A DNA stretch of 64,000 nt from sequence record OZ035760.1; one strand, written 5' to 3'. The notes beneath the pieces are model-generated. The model made no database searches, was not told the DNA's origin, and saw only the letters and a program-made list of their open reading frames with translations. The translations under genes were made by a program, and so were the position numbers. The DNA comes from Tequatrovirus NIC06P2. Positions 7,568-43,898 of this stretch are shown piece by piece. Position 1 is the stretch's first letter. Every line of letters starts with the position of its first letter.

Positions 7568-9155
<1,588 letters not shown>

Positions 9156-9159
9156 AATA

Positions 9160-9177
9160 AAATGGGCCTTGCGGCCC
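9160..9177 (-). terminator. hairpin (gggcc-gcaa-ggccc) plus short U-tract after nrdB
   Basis: 5-bp GC stem with tetraloop between nrdB stop and denA start. Confidence 0.5.
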
Positions 9178-9182
9178 ACTCC

Positions 9183-9685
9183 TTAAAAATATTTTTTAAA
9201 ACTCATCATAACTTTATCATCAACATCATTATCAATCTGTGCAACAAGGTAAGATGACAGTTCTACTTCTTGTGGCGCGGATTGAACATTATCAGAATTA
9301 AGATATTCACGAATCCAAGGATATGGATGTTTAACCGGAGCATCGGTAATTGGGCATGGAAGACCACACTGTTTCATACGAGATACAGTTAAGTAATCAA
9401 TAAAGCTCCACATGCTATTTGTATTTAATCCAGGAACATCGCCATCTTTAAATAAATGAACTGCCCAATCTTTTTCTTGGCGGTTAACTTCCATGAAAAT
9501 ATCAACTGCTTCTTGTTCACACTCTTGAGCAATTTTAACCCATTCATCGCCATCAGTGCCAAGTTGAAGTTGACGAATAATATATTGAGTGCCTTTAAGG
9601 TGAAGCTGCTCATCACGTGCAATGAACTTCATAATCTTGGCATTACCTTCCATGATTTCCATATTCTTGTGGAAGTTAAAGGTAC
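9183..9685 (-). CDS. nrdB: ribonucleotide reductase small subunit NrdB, exon 2
   Basis: Encodes ...TFNFHKNMEIMEGNAKIMKFIARDEQLHL..., matching the C-terminal half of class Ia RNR beta. Inferred 3' splice site follows an intron-terminal G at 9686. Confidence 0.75.
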
Positions 9686-10776
9686 CGTTATGTTCGATTG
9701 AGCTCGCTAATTCTCAACCCGTTCTCTTATGAACTGCTACATATTACTATGCAGACCAGACTATATCACAATCCCAGAGGGATTCTCCCCATTTCGAGTC
9801 GCTTGACCCTACGTCCGAAGACTAGTCGTTGAACCTTGCTTTGCAATTGTCGCCGTGCCATCGTTTATATGTTGATGGTGATAAATCTTTCTTATCACAA
9901 TATGGACAATTCAATTGAATTCTATTTGGATTTAATTTACATCTGTCATTATGTTTTAGATAAAATCCAGGACCTTTACCAATGTGACCGCAGAAATCAC
10001 ATGTGATTTCTTTTTGTGCAGGATGGGTCCCGTTCTTAACCATTTCTAATGTTTTTGCTGATGTTCTTTTCTTATGGTCTTCTGACAAGAAATGATGTGA
10101 ACCGTCATTTACCCGTTTTGATTGAGTTTCTGACTGCATTTTACCACCGCAAAATACATGAGTACCTTCTTTTATAGCTGCAATATTGCGTTCTTTAACT
10201 TTTGCAATATGCTCAGCTTGTTGAAAATTATGTATACCTAATGCAACTCTATTTAAATTAGATTTACGCTGTATTTCACCGTCTAAAAGATGAAATGTAC
10301 CATTTTCTATCTTAGATTTAATAGAGGCAATATTTTTAGCTCGTACTTCAGGGATATTAAAAATCTGGATTTCTCTAGATTTTGCGGCTTTAGAAGCTAA
10401 TTCAGAAATTTCTTCAGGAGAATATTTCATTCTAAGCTTTATAGCATGACAAGCCTGGTAATCTTTTTGAGCTAAATGTATATCATAATGTTCCTGTATA
10501 GAAAGGCACATCAAATTATCTAAATCATTATTTTCACGGTTACCGTCTTTATGATGGATTTCGTATGTTCTTCCATCAGAATCTTTAGGTATAGGTCCGT
10601 TAGCATCTATCCAAATTTTTCTATAGTTCAATTGTGCATCCTCTTAAAAGTATAATCATATTTATATTATACTAATTAAAGGTGCAAGCAAAACCTTGGC
10701 TGCTAGTTTTCCTATAAAGGACTTTCCAGCAATTAAAGGAGTTTTCGATAAACGTTACCGTTTAAAGGCGCATTTT
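9686..10776 (-). mobile_element. group I intron in nrdB (about 1.09 kb) carrying a homing endonuclease ORF
   Basis: In-frame stop directly after ...RFYVSFA in exon 1. Joining after the exonic U at 10777 to 9685 restores the conserved motif YVSFAC-TFNF. The intron contains a 269-aa HNH ORF. Confidence 0.7.
9822..10631 (-). CDS. I-TevIII: intron-encoded HNH homing endonuclease, I-TevIII-like (269 aa, full length)
   Basis: HNH motif (EIHHKDGNRENNDLDNL...H) plus C-terminal Cys/His zinc-finger-like region; location inside the nrdB intron. Confidence 0.8.
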   Translation of the reverse strand: MNYRKIWIDANGPIPKDSDGRTYEIHHKDGNRENNDLDNLMCLSIQEHYDIHLAQKDYQACHAIKLRMKYSPEEISELASKAAKSREIQIFNIPEVRAKNIASIKSKIENGTFHLLDGEIQRKSNLNRVALGIHNFQQAEHIAKVKERNIAAIKEGTHVFCGGKMQSETQSKRVNDGSHHFLSEDHKKRTSAKTLEMVKNGTHPAQKEITCDFCGHIGKGPGFYLKHNDRCKLNPNRIQLNCPYCDKKDLSPSTYKRWHGDNCKARFND

Positions 10777-11452
10777 ACGCAAAAGATACATAAAAACGAA
10801 TAGCTTCTAAGGCATTAATAACGTGTAAACAGAGGTAAAGAGACTTCATTAAAGCACGTTTAGCTTCGGCTTCTTGTTTAATAGCTCGGTTTAAACGAAA
10901 GTCGGCATCAGGAGATTCTTTAGCTAGTTCTACAAATTCTTTAGCATTTTCCCATTCACGGGTTTTAACCAAGACATCATCATAATAGCGACCGATAGAT
11001 TCAGCACGTTTCATGATAGCTTCATCTAATACAATCTCATCAAATACCTTCGATGGATCAGTATAAAGATTTCGCATGATATGAGTATATGAACGACTGT
11101 GAATAGTTTCACTAAAAGTCCACGTAGCAACCCATGTATCAAGACTTGGGTCTGAAATTAATGACATAAGTACAGCAGACGGTGCACGACCCTGAATGCT
11201 ATCTAGAAGTGATTGATACTTCAGGTTATTAGTAAAAATATCCTGCTGATATTGAGGAAGCTTATTAAATTGTGCAGCATCCATCATCAAGTTTACTTCT
11301 TCAGGACGCCAGAAAAATGATAAGGACTTCTCTGTAAGTTCTTCAAATACTCGATGCCGTTGAATATCATAACGCGCAATACCAAGACCTGAACCAAAAA
11401 ACATAGGTTCTTTTAAAACATCAACTGGATTTGTATTAAAAACTGTGCTCAT
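10777..11452 (-). CDS. nrdB: ribonucleotide reductase small subunit NrdB, exon 1
   Basis: Encodes the N-terminal half of RNR beta ending ...ALEAIRFYVSFA; di-iron/tyrosyl radical region is recognisable. Confidence 0.8.
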
Positions 11453-11503
11453 AAATTTTCCACTTAGTTAATAGTTGGTGACTCGTCCGTGAGTCAAATT
11501 ATA

Positions 11504-13768
11504 TCATAATTTACAGGATGAACAATCTTCAGCTTTTGGAGTTTCTATTTCATAATCATCAGTACCAGAACCATCGCGGGTATTATGATAATAGAAATTT
11601 TTTCCGCCAAAATACCAGAAATACAAAAGGTCATCAATCATTATTGACATTGGAACCTTTCCTTTTGGAAAAATCTGCGGGTCATAGTATGTATTCGCTG
11701 AAGCTGATTGACATACCCATTTCAGCATAATAGCTACCTGCGTAAGATAAGGTTTATTACCTTTCTTAGCTAATTTCCACGTATAATCATAGAGGTCTAT
11801 GTTATGTTCAATATTGGGCACGACTTGATTAAAGGAACCCTCTTTTGATTCTTTAACAGAGACTGGTCCACGTGGAGGCTCGATACCGTTTGTACTGTTA
11901 GAAACTTGGGAAGATGACTCACATGGCATAAGTGCTGATAATGTGCTATTACGGATGCCAAAGAGCTTAAGGTCTTCCCGCAACGCCGACCAGTCACAAA
12001 CGTATTTTGGAGCTGCGATTTGGTCAATCTTTTTATTGTACCAGTCGATAGGTAATTCGCCTCGAGACCAACGAGTGTCTGAATAATATTCGCAAGGTCC
12101 TTTTTCTTTGGCGAGCTTAATGGATGCTTTAATGAGTCCATACTGTAATCTCTCAAATAGTTCATGTGTTAAATCGTTAGCATCTTCATAAGAAGCAAAG
12201 TTACTTGCTAGCCAAGCTGCATAGTTGGTAACACCTACACCGAGGTTACGACGCTTTTTAGCTTTTTCTGCTTCAGGAACTGGATATCCTTGGTAATCCA
12301 ACAGATTATCAAGAGCACGAACTTGAACTTCTGCCAATTCATTAATTTTATCTTGGTCTTGCCAGTCAAAATTATCTAATACGAATGCAGAAAGAGTACA
12401 CAATCCAATTTCAGCATCAGGGCTATTCACATCATTTGTTGGAATAGCAATTTCACAACACAAGTTACTCTGACGAATAGGTGCCTTTTCACGAATAAAC
12501 GGAGTATAGTTATTCGTATTATCAATGAACTGTACATAAATCCTTGCTGTTCCTGATCGTTCAGTCATGAGCAATTCAAATAGTTCACGAGCTTTAATAC
12601 GCTTTTTACGAATATTAGGGTCTTTTTCTGCTGCTTCGTATAATTCACGGAAACGGTCTTGGTCTTTAAAATAAGAATAATAAAGCTCTCCACCCATTTC
12701 ATGTGGACTGAACAAAGTAATGTAATCGTTCTTTCCGAATCGTTCCATCATCAAATCATTCAGCTGAACACCATAATCCATATGACGAATGCGGTTTTCT
12801 TCTACGCCTTTGTTATTTTTCAAAACGAGAAGATTTTCAACTTCCAAATGCCAAATAGGATAATAAGCAGTAGCAGCGCCGCCACGAATTCCACCCTGTG
12901 AGCATGATTTAACAGCAGTCTGAAAATGTTTCCAAAAAGGAATAACACCAGTATGGCGTACTTCACCCATGCCAATCTTAGAACCTTCGGCACGAATCAT
13001 ACCAACGTTAATACCAATTCCAGCGCGTTTAGAGATATATTCAACAATTGAAGCGGAAGCCTTATTGATAGACTTCAATGAATCTCCTGCCTCAATAACA
13101 ACACATGAACTAAACTGCCGAGTCGGAGTACGGCAACCAGCCATAATAGGAGTTGGCAATGAAATCTGTCGAGTAGATACTGCTTCATAAAAACGAATAA
13201 CATGTTTTAATCTATCAACAGGTTCATCTTGATGCAATGCCATTCCAATAGTCATAAATGCAAACTGTGGAGTTTCATAAATTTGACCAGTGGTTTTATC
13301 TTTAACTAGATATTTTTCTTTTAATTGCATCGCCCCGGAATAAGTAAATTCCATATCCCGCTCGTGCTTAATTTTTGATTCTAAAAATGTAATTTCTTCT
13401 GCTGAATATTTTGACAATAATTCAGGGTCGTATTTACCTTCATTTACACAGTAAGAAATATGGTCAATAAATGAACGTGGTTCATACTGCCCATAAACAT
13501 GCTTACGAAGAGCAAACATTAAACAACGTGCAGCTACATATTGATAATCAGGCTCTTCAACCGAAATAGAATTCGCAGCGGCCTTAATGACAATAGTCTG
13601 AATATCATCAGTTGTCATTCCATCACGGAGATAAGATTTAATATTTTCATATAATTCATAAGGATCTACTGATGTTCCTTCAGCTGCCCAAGATAAAACT
13701 TTAATAATTTTTTGTGGGTCAAAGCTCTGAGAAACACCACTACTTTTGATAACATTAATTAATTGCAT
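11504..13768 (-). CDS. nrdA: ribonucleotide reductase large subunit (754 aa)
   Basis: Class Ia RNR alpha signatures (ATP cone, active-site Cys region NLCCEI, C-terminal CxxC...CSSC); T4 NrdA length. Confidence 0.95.
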   Translation of the reverse strand: MQLINVIKSSGVSQSFDPQKIIKVLSWAAEGTSVDPYELYENIKSYLRDGMTTDDIQTIVIKAAANSISVEEPDYQYVAARCLMFALRKHVYGQYEPRSFIDHISYCVNEGKYDPELLSKYSAEEITFLESKIKHERDMEFTYSGAMQLKEKYLVKDKTTGQIYETPQFAFMTIGMALHQDEPVDRLKHVIRFYEAVSTRQISLPTPIMAGCRTPTRQFSSCVVIEAGDSLKSINKASASIVEYISKRAGIGINVGMIRAEGSKIGMGEVRHTGVIPFWKHFQTAVKSCSQGGIRGGAATAYYPIWHLEVENLLVLKNNKGVEENRIRHMDYGVQLNDLMMERFGKNDYITLFSPHEMGGELYYSYFKDQDRFRELYEAAEKDPNIRKKRIKARELFELLMTERSGTARIYVQFIDNTNNYTPFIREKAPIRQSNLCCEIAIPTNDVNSPDAEIGLCTLSAFVLDNFDWQDQDKINELAEVQVRALDNLLDYQGYPVPEAEKAKKRRNLGVGVTNYAAWLASNFASYEDANDLTHELFERLQYGLIKASIKLAKEKGPCEYYSDTRWSRGELPIDWYNKKIDQIAAPKYVCDWSALREDLKLFGIRNSTLSALMPCESSSQVSNSTNGIEPPRGPVSVKESKEGSFNQVVPNIEHNIDLYDYTWKLAKKGNKPYLTQVAIMLKWVCQSASANTYYDPQIFPKGKVPMSIMIDDLLYFWYFGGKNFYYHNTRDGSGTDDYEIETPKAEDCSSCKL

Positions 13769-14085: not shown

Positions 14086-14302
14086 ATTGTTTTTCCGTTA
14101 ATACAGTAATATCGTAGTAACAGTCAGAAGAAGTTTTAACTGTGGAAATTTTATTGTCAAAATATTCACGAGTCATTTTATGAGTATAGTATTTTTTACC
14201 ATAAATGGTAATAGGCTGTTCTGGTCCTGGAACTTCTAACTCGCTTGGGTTAGGAAGTGTAAAAAGAACTACACCAGAAGTATCTTTAAATCGTAAAATC
14301 AT
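14039..14302 (-). CDS. hypothetical protein (nrdA.2 position, 87 aa)
   Basis: Complete ORF coupled to the td stop. Confidence 0.5.
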
Positions 14303-15159
14303 ATTGCCATTTTCCCTTTAATTGCTGGATGCGATTCATAATTTTCAAGGATAAAATCTTTCGGTTTCATGTATTCAGTTAACCAGTAAAGCTGTGTTTC
14401 GGTGTCACAATTTCCAAACTCTATAGGCCAGTCAATTTTAAGTTCGCACAGTTCTTTAGGCTCACGACGTAAAATTTCTTTACATTGCTCAGTATGATTC
14501 ATATAGATGTGAGTATTACCACCAGAAAATATCAAATCTCCTGGGATAAGATTACACATCTTAGCCACAATATGCGTCAAGGCAGCGTACGAGGCAATGT
14601 TGAATGGCAAGCCCAAGAAAACATCTACACTTCTTTGGTACCATTGTAAATCAAGATAACCATTACGCACATTAAACTGATAGAACATATGACAGGGCGG
14701 TAATGCCATTTGATTGATTTCAGCTGGATTCCATGCTGAAACGATTTGACGTCGATCAGTTGGTAATTTTTTAATACGATCAATAGTTTCAACTAATTGA
14801 TCCACACCACCGAAATCACGCCATTGTTTACCGTATATAGGACCAAGTTCACCACTATGATATCCTAGGTCTTTAGCCTGGTTTTCATAGTTATCGTCCC
14901 AAATAGTTTTACCTTGAATAAGACTACCATGAGTGCGAAGACGTAAATCATTAACATTGGTAGAACCGGAAATAAACCATAGAAGCTCAGCAATGCATGC
15001 ATTCCAGGCGAGCTTTTTAGTTGTTACTGCAGGAAAACCTTTGGTTAAATCCCAACGCAATTTAGTACCGAACAAAGCAATTGTTCCTGTGCCCGTTCGA
15101 TCATCGGTTTCATAGCCATTTTCAAAAATGTCTTTAATTAAATCTTGGTATTGTTTCAT
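14299..15159 (-). CDS. td: thymidylate synthase, uninterrupted (286 aa)
   Basis: Full-length TS with catalytic region PPCHMFYQF in a single ORF; no intron. Confidence 0.95.
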
Positions 15160-15203: not shown

Positions 15204-15551
15204 TTAATACGGTTTAGCATCAAATTTTCTCTCAATTTCAGGCGTGAAATATAATTCTTTACCGCGTTTGGAAAAACGACCAATAATATGATAATTATTC
15301 TCATCAAACGTGATATTACCAATATCCATAGCTTTCAACCAAATATCGATATTTCTATCCAGCTTTATGTCAAAATTCCAATACGGAGAACTATTACCGA
15401 AAATACTGCAAGCGGATTCAGTGAAACAACTGCTATAAATCTTGTCTTTAGGAACTACTAATTGATAGACGCCTTTAATAAACTGAGGACCCTGCCATTT
15501 TGGTTGTTTCGCGTCTTTTTCTAATAGAATAGGGTAATAATTAAAATTCAT
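15204..15551 (-). CDS. hypothetical protein inserted between frd and td (115 aa)
   Basis: Complete ORF occupying a 411-bp spacer between frd stop and td start. Confidence 0.5.
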   Translation of the reverse strand: MNFNYYPILLEKDAKQPKWQGPQFIKGVYQLVVPKDKIYSSCFTESACSIFGNSSPYWNFDIKLDRNIDIWLKAMDIGNITFDENNYHIIGRFSKRGKELYFTPEIERKFDAKPY

Positions 15552-42023: not shown

Positions 42024-42078
42024 TTCAATATCCTCATTTGCCCAATTAATTATACCACATCCTTGTGGTAAAGTAAAC
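42024..42078 (-). promoter_or_regulatory. candidate early promoter (GTTTAC at 42073-42078)
   Basis: Reverse complement GTTTACTTTACCACAAGGATGTGGTATAATTAA upstream of the rIIA.1 ORF. Confidence 0.5.
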
Positions 42079-43898
42079 TACTGGCTCATCCATTCTTTAC
42101 GAAGGTCAGCGTTATCTCCCATGAGCATTTCAAAAAGCTCTTTCCAATTCTCAGGAAGTTTAACAACATCATATACTGGATTTTGAATCATCTCACGATA
42201 TTCAGATTTTTCCAAAGAGCCAAGTCCTTTAATATAACGGATGCTATGTTTAGGTAGAGCATCTTTGGCACTCTCATATTCAGCGACTGTATAAAACCAT
42301 TCTTGTTTTTTACCGACCTGAGCGATGATTACAGGAGTTTTGACAAAGCGAATTCGTCCTTGCTCAAACAATTCTGGCCAATTACTAAAAAATCCGAGCA
42401 GAGAAGGATAAATGCTTCCTAGACCATCATGGTCAGCATCAGTCATAATAGCAATATTATGATAATTCAAGTTTTCAGCTTTTTCACCGAGAACTAATCC
42501 AGTGATTGCGCAAATATCAAATAGTTCTTTGTTTTTAAGCATATCAGCATATGACATACCCCAACTGTTGAGAACTTTACCACGTAATGGATAACCACCG
42601 TGAAGTTCTTTATCACGAACATCAATAAGATATCCGATAGCCGAATCACCCTCAGTCAAGAAAAGAGTAGTATCAGCATCTTTACCACAAAGATTCGCTT
42701 TAATATGTTTATGAACCTTAGCTTTAGAAGCCTTTTTAGCTGCTTTAGTTTCTGCTGCTTTTTCTGCCGCTAATTTACGAGCCAAAGCAGCTTCAATAAT
42801 CGGCATTAGAATTGCTTCATTATTTAGAATAGCACGTGAAATCTTTTTAGCATCAAGCTGAATATGACTACGGATTTCACCAAATGGAGAAGTCAAGCGC
42901 TCTTTAGTTTGAGAATCAAATCGCATGTTTTTCATATCACGAACAAACATAACGATAGTCAAACATTCTTTAACACGTGCTTTAGTTACATCAATTTTGA
43001 ACTTACGTTTGATTTGTGGAATAAGGTCTTCACAAATATCATCCATAACACAGTCAATGTGATGGCCACCATTCTTAGTGTGGATGTTATTGACGTATGT
43101 TAATTGACGAAAACCATCCGGTGAACGACCAACCGCAATAGAACAATTTTCTTGTTCTTGAACAATAGCATGCTCATCATATTGGCGTGCATATTTCTTA
43201 AAATTGCCCTGAACCTTTTTACCATTAAAGGTAAATTGAATATCAGGATAAACAACAGCAAGTGTCTGGAGACGATCTAGTGTAATGTCAAGATAAACTT
43301 GGGACAGCTCATTAGTTTCAAATGACATAAAATCAGGAATGAAAGTAACACGAGTTCCTTTCCATTTTCCAGGAATATCTTCCCATGATTTATTTTCCAT
43401 GCCGTTTGAACAACGAACTACAATATTATTTTGACCATCACCAGTTTCACCGACAAACATCACAGAAAAAATGTTTGTCAAACTAGAACCAACACCATTC
43501 ATACCACCGGTGACGCGCTCTTTATCATCACCGAAGTTACCACCTGCTTTTGGAATAGTCCACGCAGCAACAGGTCCAGGAATTTCTTCACCGGTAGGTG
43601 TTTTAACCATCGCTTGTGGAATACCGCGACCGTTATCTTCAACTGTTACTTGATTGTTTTTAATAGTAACATTAATTTTATTTGCGAATTTAAACTTAGT
43701 ACGAATACCTTCATCTACTGAGTTATCGATAATTTCATCAATAAGCTTAACAAGACCAGGTACATACTGAACACTTTCCCATTTACCAAACAGAAAGCGC
43801 TCATGCATTTCATTAGCAGAAGAGCCAATGTACATGCCGCTACGCTTTTTGATATGTTCAATATCGCTCAGAATTTTAATTTCATTCTTAATCATCAC
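42078..43898 (-). CDS. 39: DNA topoisomerase II large subunit, single fused gp39 (606 aa; covers T4 genes 39 and 60)
   Basis: GyrB-like ATPase (GHKL) and TOPRIM regions in one uninterrupted ORF; no internal gap, no mobA. Confidence 0.9.
   Translation of the reverse strand: MMIKNEIKILSDIEHIKKRSGMYIGSSANEMHERFLFGKWESVQYVPGLVKLIDEIIDNSVDEGIRTKFKFANKINVTIKNNQVTVEDNGRGIPQAMVKTPTGEEIPGPVAAWTIPKAGGNFGDDKERVTGGMNGVGSSLTNIFSVMFVGETGDGQNNIVVRCSNGMENKSWEDIPGKWKGTRVTFIPDFMSFETNELSQVYLDITLDRLQTLAVVYPDIQFTFNGKKVQGNFKKYARQYDEHAIVQEQENCSIAVGRSPDGFRQLTYVNNIHTKNGGHHIDCVMDDICEDLIPQIKRKFKIDVTKARVKECLTIVMFVRDMKNMRFDSQTKERLTSPFGEIRSHIQLDAKKISRAILNNEAILMPIIEAALARKLAAEKAAETKAAKKASKAKVHKHIKANLCGKDADTTLFLTEGDSAIGYLIDVRDKELHGGYPLRGKVLNSWGMSYADMLKNKELFDICAITGLVLGEKAENLNYHNIAIMTDADHDGLGSIYPSLLGFFSNWPELFEQGRIRFVKTPVIIAQVGKKQEWFYTVAEYESAKDALPKHSIRYIKGLGSLEKSEYREMIQNPVYDVVKLPENWKELFEMLMGDNADLRKEWMSQ

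Follow-up and report, generated by a model that had tools for sequence, protein, structure and literature searches.

The nrdB gene of Tequatrovirus NIC06P2 occupies positions 11452-9183 on the minus strand of the 64,000-nt stretch of sequence record OZ035760.1 analyzed here (the window, to which all coordinates refer unless another phage is named), and its reading frame is interrupted. Exon 1 (10777..11452, minus strand), delimited from the list of open reading frames (ORFs) and the sequence, comprises 225 codons and the first base of codon 226; it begins with an ATG at 11452 and ends in ...RFYVSFA, with GCG (10780-10778) as codon 225. In the unspliced RNA a TAA stop (10777-10775) follows codon 225 directly, and the frame resembling ribonucleotide reductase (RNR) picks up again ∼1.1 kb beyond it, in exon 2 (9183..9685, minus strand, stop codon included), as the initial annotation of this DNA had reported. 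Between the exons lies a group I intron of subgroup IA type (9686..10776, minus strand; 1091 nt, with a terminal G at 9686), delimited by its identity to the nrdB introns of phages RB3 and G2469 and by intronless alleles. Looped out from helix P6a of this intron is the gene for I-TevIII (9822..10631, minus strand; 269 aa, TTG start), with an N-terminal HNH motif and two C-terminal zinc fingers. We are nearly certain that this T4-like phage (Tequatrovirus) carries in its nrdB the full-length RB3-type group I intron with I-TevIII.

The joint between the exons could be placed exactly. Joining T10777 to G9685 takes out 1091 nt (10776-9686), creates a TGT (Cys) codon and restores the frame, such that the protein reads ...YVSFAC-TFNFHKNMEIMEG... 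across the joint; the 5′ splice site is then U10777, the last base of exon 1. The spliced coding sequence is 1179 nt long and gives a 392-aa protein, in which Pfam Ribonuc_red_sm (PF00268) forms a single unbroken match (residues 33-335, E = 1.1e-36, 127 bits) spanning the splice joint at residue 226, and the spliced exons are thus predicted to encode a full-length class Ia RNR beta subunit, NrdB. A 500-nt junction query that combined the final 250 nt of exon 1 with the initial 250 nt of exon 2 was matched in one piece, at 96-98% identity, by intronless alleles (NBG2, ECML-134, RB32, RB33 and others). At the junction nrdB of NBG2 reads TCTTTTGCATGTACCTTTAAC, where the window has TCTTTTGCGT, the intron and then GTACCTTTAAC. 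A shift of the junction by even one base is excluded by the flanking bases, and since the intronless alleles and the flanking bases together fix it, the splice sites that the initial annotation had proposed (10777/9685, restoring YVSFAC) are exact. The junction in the spliced mRNA would be expected to read ...UUUUGCGU/GUACCUUU... (also written UUUUGCGU/GUACCUUUAAC). The nrdB of the window is 95-99% identical to nrdB of intronless phages, and its exon 1 is 94-95% identical to exon 1 of RB3, PD112 and NBG2.

Alignment with the RB3 intron (X59078, KM606994), a check suggested at the outset, revealed the same host gene, the same insertion site, the same length of 1091 nt and 1090 of 1091 identical nucleotides. 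The two introns also share a 269-aa ORF in the same loop, collinear and identically placed with respect to the core, and have the TTG start, late promoter and hairpin in common. They differ at one nucleotide, which gives Asp23 in RB3 and Tyr23 in the window; in addition, exon 1 is only 94% identical, and RB3 has the gene mobE between nrdA and nrdB (L001:764-1495), the interval in which T4 also carries it, whereas the window lacks mobE. The RB3 nrdB intron was discovered by Eddy & Gold in 1991 (cited in PMC2988022) and its enzyme was characterized by Robbins et al. in 2007 (PMC1865063), with a later review (PMC2988022). The element is therefore an already known and ordinary one, the RB3 nrdB intron with I-TevIII.

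The T4 nrdB intron shares with the window its insertion site, a core that is ∼98% identical, the promoter and hairpin region, and the start and end of the ORF. In contrast to the undeleted ORF of the window, however, its own ORF is short by 491 nt, a loss that takes in the HNH motif, and its endonuclease is inactive. As measured in RB55, where it is annotated "I-TevIII (defective)", the T4-type intron is 598 nt long and has a 491-nt internal deletion. The contrast drawn in the initial annotation, a truncated T4 intron of ∼0.6 kb against a full-length one in RB3, thus proved accurate, and the window was correctly assigned to the intact form. The ORF-less form makes up a third class of alleles, in addition to the 1091-nt RB3 and 598-nt T4 forms: Escherichia phage vB_vPM_PD112 (PD112) has a natural 304-nt intron (L002:1201-1504) from which the ORF has been deleted except for its last 29 nt and in which the core is intact, and CE1 and BYEP01 appear, from the spacing of the pieces in the junction search, to share this form.

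The initial annotation had called the insert a ∼1.09-kb group I intron, and the catalytic core was located through PD112. The 5′ 139 nt and the 3′ 165 nt of the PD112 intron equal those of the window intron, save for a 2-nt deletion in the loop of the leader hairpin. On this ORF-less intron Rfam RF00028 (Intron_gpI) scored 68.6 bits (gathering score 50; E = 2.4e-16; model positions 1-253), and the RF00028 core was thus found through a sequence whose core is that of the window. We drew a helix layout from the Rfam alignment of PD112 together with the window sequence, and compared six core sequences: the window, the T4 type, LH2, Klebsiella phage EI, Pu-Krd-SF2 and Salmonella phage SEA1. The folding into P1-P9 elements that had been proposed as a check gave a complete layout (P1, P2, P3, P4, P5, P6, P6a, P7, P7.1, P7.2, P8, P9, P9.1 and P9.2), in which 70 of 70 pairs are standard. 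Among the six sequences all 418 of 418 pair cells were paired, compared with 33-46% when the partners were slid by 1-3 columns, and the 13 variable columns fall in loops, joining regions or the flanking exon, or else preserve the pairing. We conclude that the window intron contains a group I catalytic core of subgroup IA type.

The individual helices, all on the minus strand, are arranged as follows. P1 (10768..10780, from helix mapping) pairs exon GCGU (10780-10777) with the internal guide GCGC (10771-10768), placing a U·G wobble (U10777 with G10771) at the 5′ splice site; its pairs are kept in 6 of 6 sequences, and the Ala225 codon within it is GCG in the intron-bearing alleles versus GCA in intronless NBG2. 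P2, a hairpin with a GUAA loop (10749..10764; helix mapping and the six-sequence comparison), shows in SEA1 one compensatory change (A-U to G-C) and one C-G to U·G change. The 5′ strand of P3 (10736..10741; Rfam alignment of the identical PD112 core and helix mapping) has its partner at 9785-9790, and the P4-P5 domain with an A-rich J4/5 (10701..10731) was placed by the Rfam alignment, helix mapping and comparison. The 5′ strands of P6 and P6a (10688..10700), where a U·G becomes U-A in the T4-type sequences, pair with 9833-9844, which falls within the terminal part of the ORF; the final 22 nt of the I-TevIII ORF double as P6a′, P6′, J6/7 and the 5′ strand of P7. This strand (GACUA; 9823..9827) overlaps the I-TevIII stop codon (TAG, 9824-9822), pairs with 9759-9763 and forms a pseudoknot with P3, and the conserved GACUA and UAGUC blocks are seen in the Rfam consensus alignment. 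P7.1, with a UUCG loop, and P7.2 (9796..9822) appear in that alignment as an insertion between P7 and P3′; helices in this position mark subgroup IA, the one that includes the T4 introns. P8 (9770..9784) varies in its loop only. P9, with a GUAA loop, P9.1 and P9.2 (9698..9754; Rfam alignment, helix mapping and comparison) precede the final base of the intron, G9686 (omega-G), and between the RB3-type and T4-type sequences P9 carries a compensatory change, A-U to G-C, together with a G·U to G-C change. The core changes thus comprise two compensatory ones, in P2 and P9, and three involving wobble pairs. This covariation result is consistent with the Rfam result on PD112.

The product of the intron ORF had been described as an "I-TevIII-like" full-length HNH endonuclease with a zinc-finger-like C-terminus. 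The full length, the HNH motif and the zinc fingers were borne out, but the name understated the match, as the protein, judged by its sequence, is I-TevIII itself, in its Tyr23 allele: 268 of 269 residues are identical to the RB3 protein, with D23Y as the sole difference. Pfam HNH_3 covers residues 4-48 (E = 6e-13), and PHROG 12324 ("intron-like DNA endonuclease") aligns over residues 1-269 of 269 (E = 1.9e-193). I-TevIII is a dimeric homing endonuclease with an HNH motif and two zinc fingers. Alanine substitution of H26, H27, N39 or H48 abolishes cleavage by I-TevIII, and the zinc fingers with C211/C214 and C242/C245 are needed for DNA binding (PMC1865063). All four HNH residues are retained in the window protein, as are C211, C214, C242 and C245, which lie in two CX2CX12-13HX3C motifs at residues 211-231 and 242-263. 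A PDB sequence search with I-TevIII returned no relative with a solved structure; the single match (E = 0.29) was spurious.

Further evidence on the mobility of the intron came from its relatives. At least 80% of the intron is carried by 84 phage records, and the full-length form is present in ∼80 deposited genomes. The window intron is identical at 1091 of 1091 nucleotides to that of Escherichia phage vB_EcoM_G2469 (MK327934), a member of another genus (Mosigvirus), which encodes an identical I-TevIII protein. The perfect identity extends 49 nt into exon 1 and 67 nt into exon 2 (L006 852-2058), but elsewhere in nrdB identity to G2469 is 58-94% per 50-nt window, with whole-exon values of 82.6% and 83.5%, so that the remainder of the gene is only ∼83% identical. 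This block of identity looks like the product of recent homing across genera, with co-conversion tracts of 49 and 67 nt. A more diverged relative, the Salmonella phage SEA1 (Gelderlandvirus), is 90.7% identical to the window over the intron and 76-80% over the exons. SEA1 has an intact 269-aa I-TevIII ORF (L005:1046-1858) that is ∼90% identical and has the same TTG start, although in its annotation the ORF is shortened to 229 aa, starting from an internal ATG, and is labeled hypothetical.

Expression of I-TevIII is probably regulated. The TTG start lies 7 nt after a Shine-Dalgarno sequence, AAGAGGA (10645-10639), which in the RNA fold is paired in the 3′ arm of a hairpin (10635..10686, minus strand; −14.9 kcal/mol, z = −3.4), with 1 of 200 shuffled sequences folding as well. 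T4 late promoters are not of the sigma-70 type, and the late-promoter consensus was therefore sought by direct motif search; TATAAATA was found at 10659..10666 on the minus strand, in the loop of the hairpin and 27 nt upstream of the I-TevIII start. A scan for sigma-70 promoters and terminators yielded nothing above the shuffled expectation. Just upstream of the late promoter lies a homing-site copy that resembles an operator, TTTTGCTTGCACCTTTAATT (10674..10693, minus strand), which agrees at 17 of 20 positions with the exon junction TTTTGCGT/GTACCTTTAACT, a level of agreement reached by 0 of 500 shuffles. These elements have published counterparts: late and middle promoters occur inside the T4 introns, the ribosome-binding sites of the T4 intron endonucleases I-TevI to I-TevIII are sequestered in early and middle transcripts and freed in late-promoter transcripts that start within the hairpin, and a putative I-TevIII autorepression operator resembling the homing site has been described (PMC2988022).

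Taken together, the features of the locus suggest the following model. The intron RNA would fold into the subgroup IA core, with the U·G pair of P1, helices P2-P9.2, the P3/P7 pseudoknot, the P7.1/P7.2 insertion and the terminal G, and would excise itself by the usual guanosine-initiated two-step transesterification, joining U10777 to G9685 such that the 392-aa NrdB is made normally. In early and middle nrdB transcripts the hairpin would hide the ribosome-binding site of I-TevIII; late transcripts, beginning at the promoter in the hairpin loop, would lack the 5′ arm and leave the site free, and I-TevIII would be translated late. The homing-site copy probably serves as an operator for autorepression. 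After cleavage of an intronless allele, double-strand-break repair would copy the intron and some flanking exon into the cut allele. The td and nrdD (sunY) introns of T4 share much of this design: they too are phage introns of group I that interrupt genes of nucleotide metabolism, each has an ORF for a homing endonuclease looped out of its core, and each is regulated by a promoter (late or middle) combined with a hairpin that sequesters the ribosome-binding site (PMC2988022). They differ in that the enzymes they encode (I-TevI and I-TevII) belong to the GIY-YIG rather than the HNH family, and in their host genes and insertion sites.

Four points weigh against our assignment of a full-length RB3-type intron. 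First, Rfam searches of the window itself detected no group I intron, whether with a permissive E-value on 9000-11600 or with gathering scores on all 64 kb. The likely reason is that the ORF and its leader put ∼830 nt into the P6a loop, more than the covariance model can span; as a consequence, the evidence for the core is indirect and comes through the PD112 proxy. Second, the support from covariation is modest, as the six cores are 98% identical and one of these same sequences served to derive the structure. Third, the substitution that separates the window enzyme from the assayed RB3 protein, D23Y, lies three residues before the catalytic H26/H27, so that activity of the Tyr23 form is a prediction. 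Fourth, splicing, cleavage and regulation in this phage are extrapolated from the published work on RB3 and T4; the anatomy of the locus, its identity to a characterized element, the core and the comparative homing footprint come from the present comparison.

The Rfam result bears on the possibility that nrdB is permanently split by a non-splicing mobile-gene insert and specifies two separate polypeptides or is a dead gene, which is also how many annotators have treated it, calling two nrdB coding sequences and a "hypothetical protein". However, the insert begins and ends exactly where its removal restores both the reading frame and the sequence of the intronless alleles, it contains a complete group I core, and that core is ∼98% identical to the core of the T4 nrdB intron, for which self-splicing is established (background in PMC1865063). 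Moreover, exon 2 starts without a start codon or ribosome-binding site, its first ATG being 8 codons in. We therefore find a permanently disrupted nrdB barely credible, and retain the spliced, full-length NrdB as our reading.

The D23Y substitution bears on a different possibility, that the intron splices but its endonuclease is, as in T4, a non-functional passenger, such that the intron persists only by vertical descent or by hitch-hiking on a neighboring endonuclease. This would be consistent with the weakness of the assayed RB3 enzyme, which has a very low specific activity, a Kd of ∼0.8 µM and homing at only 4.3% (PMC1865063), and with the fate of the T4 version, which is defunct and mobilized only in trans by MobE (PMC2790892), as well as with a substitution near the active site. 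On the other hand, the reading frame has its full length, none of the catalytic or zinc-binding residues has been lost, and there is no mobE in the window to act in trans. The codon at issue, TAC at 10563-10565, specifies what is the commonest allele among deposited phage genomes: Tyr23 occurs in 66 phage records and in the diverged I-TevIII of SEA1, whereas Asp23 is confined to 9 records, RB3 and its sibling isolates RB5-RB10. Furthermore, the block of identity shared with G2469 is centered on the intron insertion site and not on the MobE site near nt 122-126 of nrdB. Because the ORF is intact, Tyr23 is widespread, mobE is absent and the identity block is centered on the intron, we consider a dead passenger quite improbable and favor an intact, potentially mobile I-TevIII.

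The distribution of the two alleles also means that the RB3 protein, the one studied biochemically, is the minority form. It is conceivable, although on balance doubtful, that Asp23 of RB3 is a hypomorphic laboratory allele that partly explains the low activity, weak binding and instability of that enzyme, in which case the Tyr23 protein would be a markedly better homing endonuclease. A better enzyme of this kind, if it exists, would fit the perfect identity of the intron across phage genera.

As a textbook mobile phage group I intron since 1991, the element is of little value for discovery, and our comparison adds minor points to the literature: the common Tyr23 allele, an example of co-conversion across genera, and a full-length nrdB intron in a phage with neither mobE nor the td intron. 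It has value for annotation, as the exact coordinates and splice joint permit a correct joined nrdB coding sequence. Many deposited genomes label the halves of nrdB as separate genes and I-TevIII as hypothetical; among them is G2469, in which nrdB is given as two genes and the intron ORF as a hypothetical protein. The comparison with G2469 also provides a clean natural example of cross-genus homing with short co-conversion tracts.

The genes around nrdB are in the order found in T4-like phages. On the minus strand, rnlA (8728-7568), denA (9179-8745), nrdB and nrdA (13768-11504) are followed, beyond nrdA, by small ORFs at 14085-13759 and 14302-14039, td, an extra 115-aa ORF and frd. Only 51 nt (11453-11503) separate the nrdA stop from the nrdB start, and the free-standing HNH gene mobE is absent from this interval. 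The thymidylate synthase gene td (14299-15159, minus strand) is a single uninterrupted ORF of 286 aa, so neither the td group I intron nor I-TevI is present in this phage. The 115-aa ORF between frd and td (15204-15551, minus strand) matches PHROG 1928, a family of unknown function (E = 8e-36); in T4, frd and td presumably adjoin directly.

Within exon 1, a patch at about nt 117-135 of nrdB (window 11318-11336) is highly variable in both nucleotides and amino acids when nrdB genes of T4-like phages are compared. The place where MobE nicks T2 nrdB, mapped to nt 122-126 (PMC2790892), coincides with this patch, but its variants do not split cleanly by the presence of mobE. We accordingly rejected the surrounding nt 91-160 as a divider between mobE-plus and mobE-minus phages; it is merely a variable patch without a clean partition.

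Directly after the nrdB stop lies a GC-rich hairpin (9160-9180, minus strand; GGGCCGCAAGGCCC followed by ATTTTATT), which overlaps the GTG listed as the start of denA. Translation of denA probably begins instead at ATG 9155, matching RB3, where the gene is 411 nt long. This hairpin accounts for the only Rfam match in the nrdB region, a weak one to L20_leader (9148-9274; 23.8 bits against a gathering score of 58.7 bits), which we treated as a chance match. Farther away, a single 606-aa ORF (42078-43898, minus strand) lies where BLAST neighbors annotate the large subunit of DNA topoisomerase II. In T4 the topoisomerase gene is split into genes 39 and 60, which mobA separates; the phage examined here appears to carry it unsplit and to lack the gene 60 bypass element.

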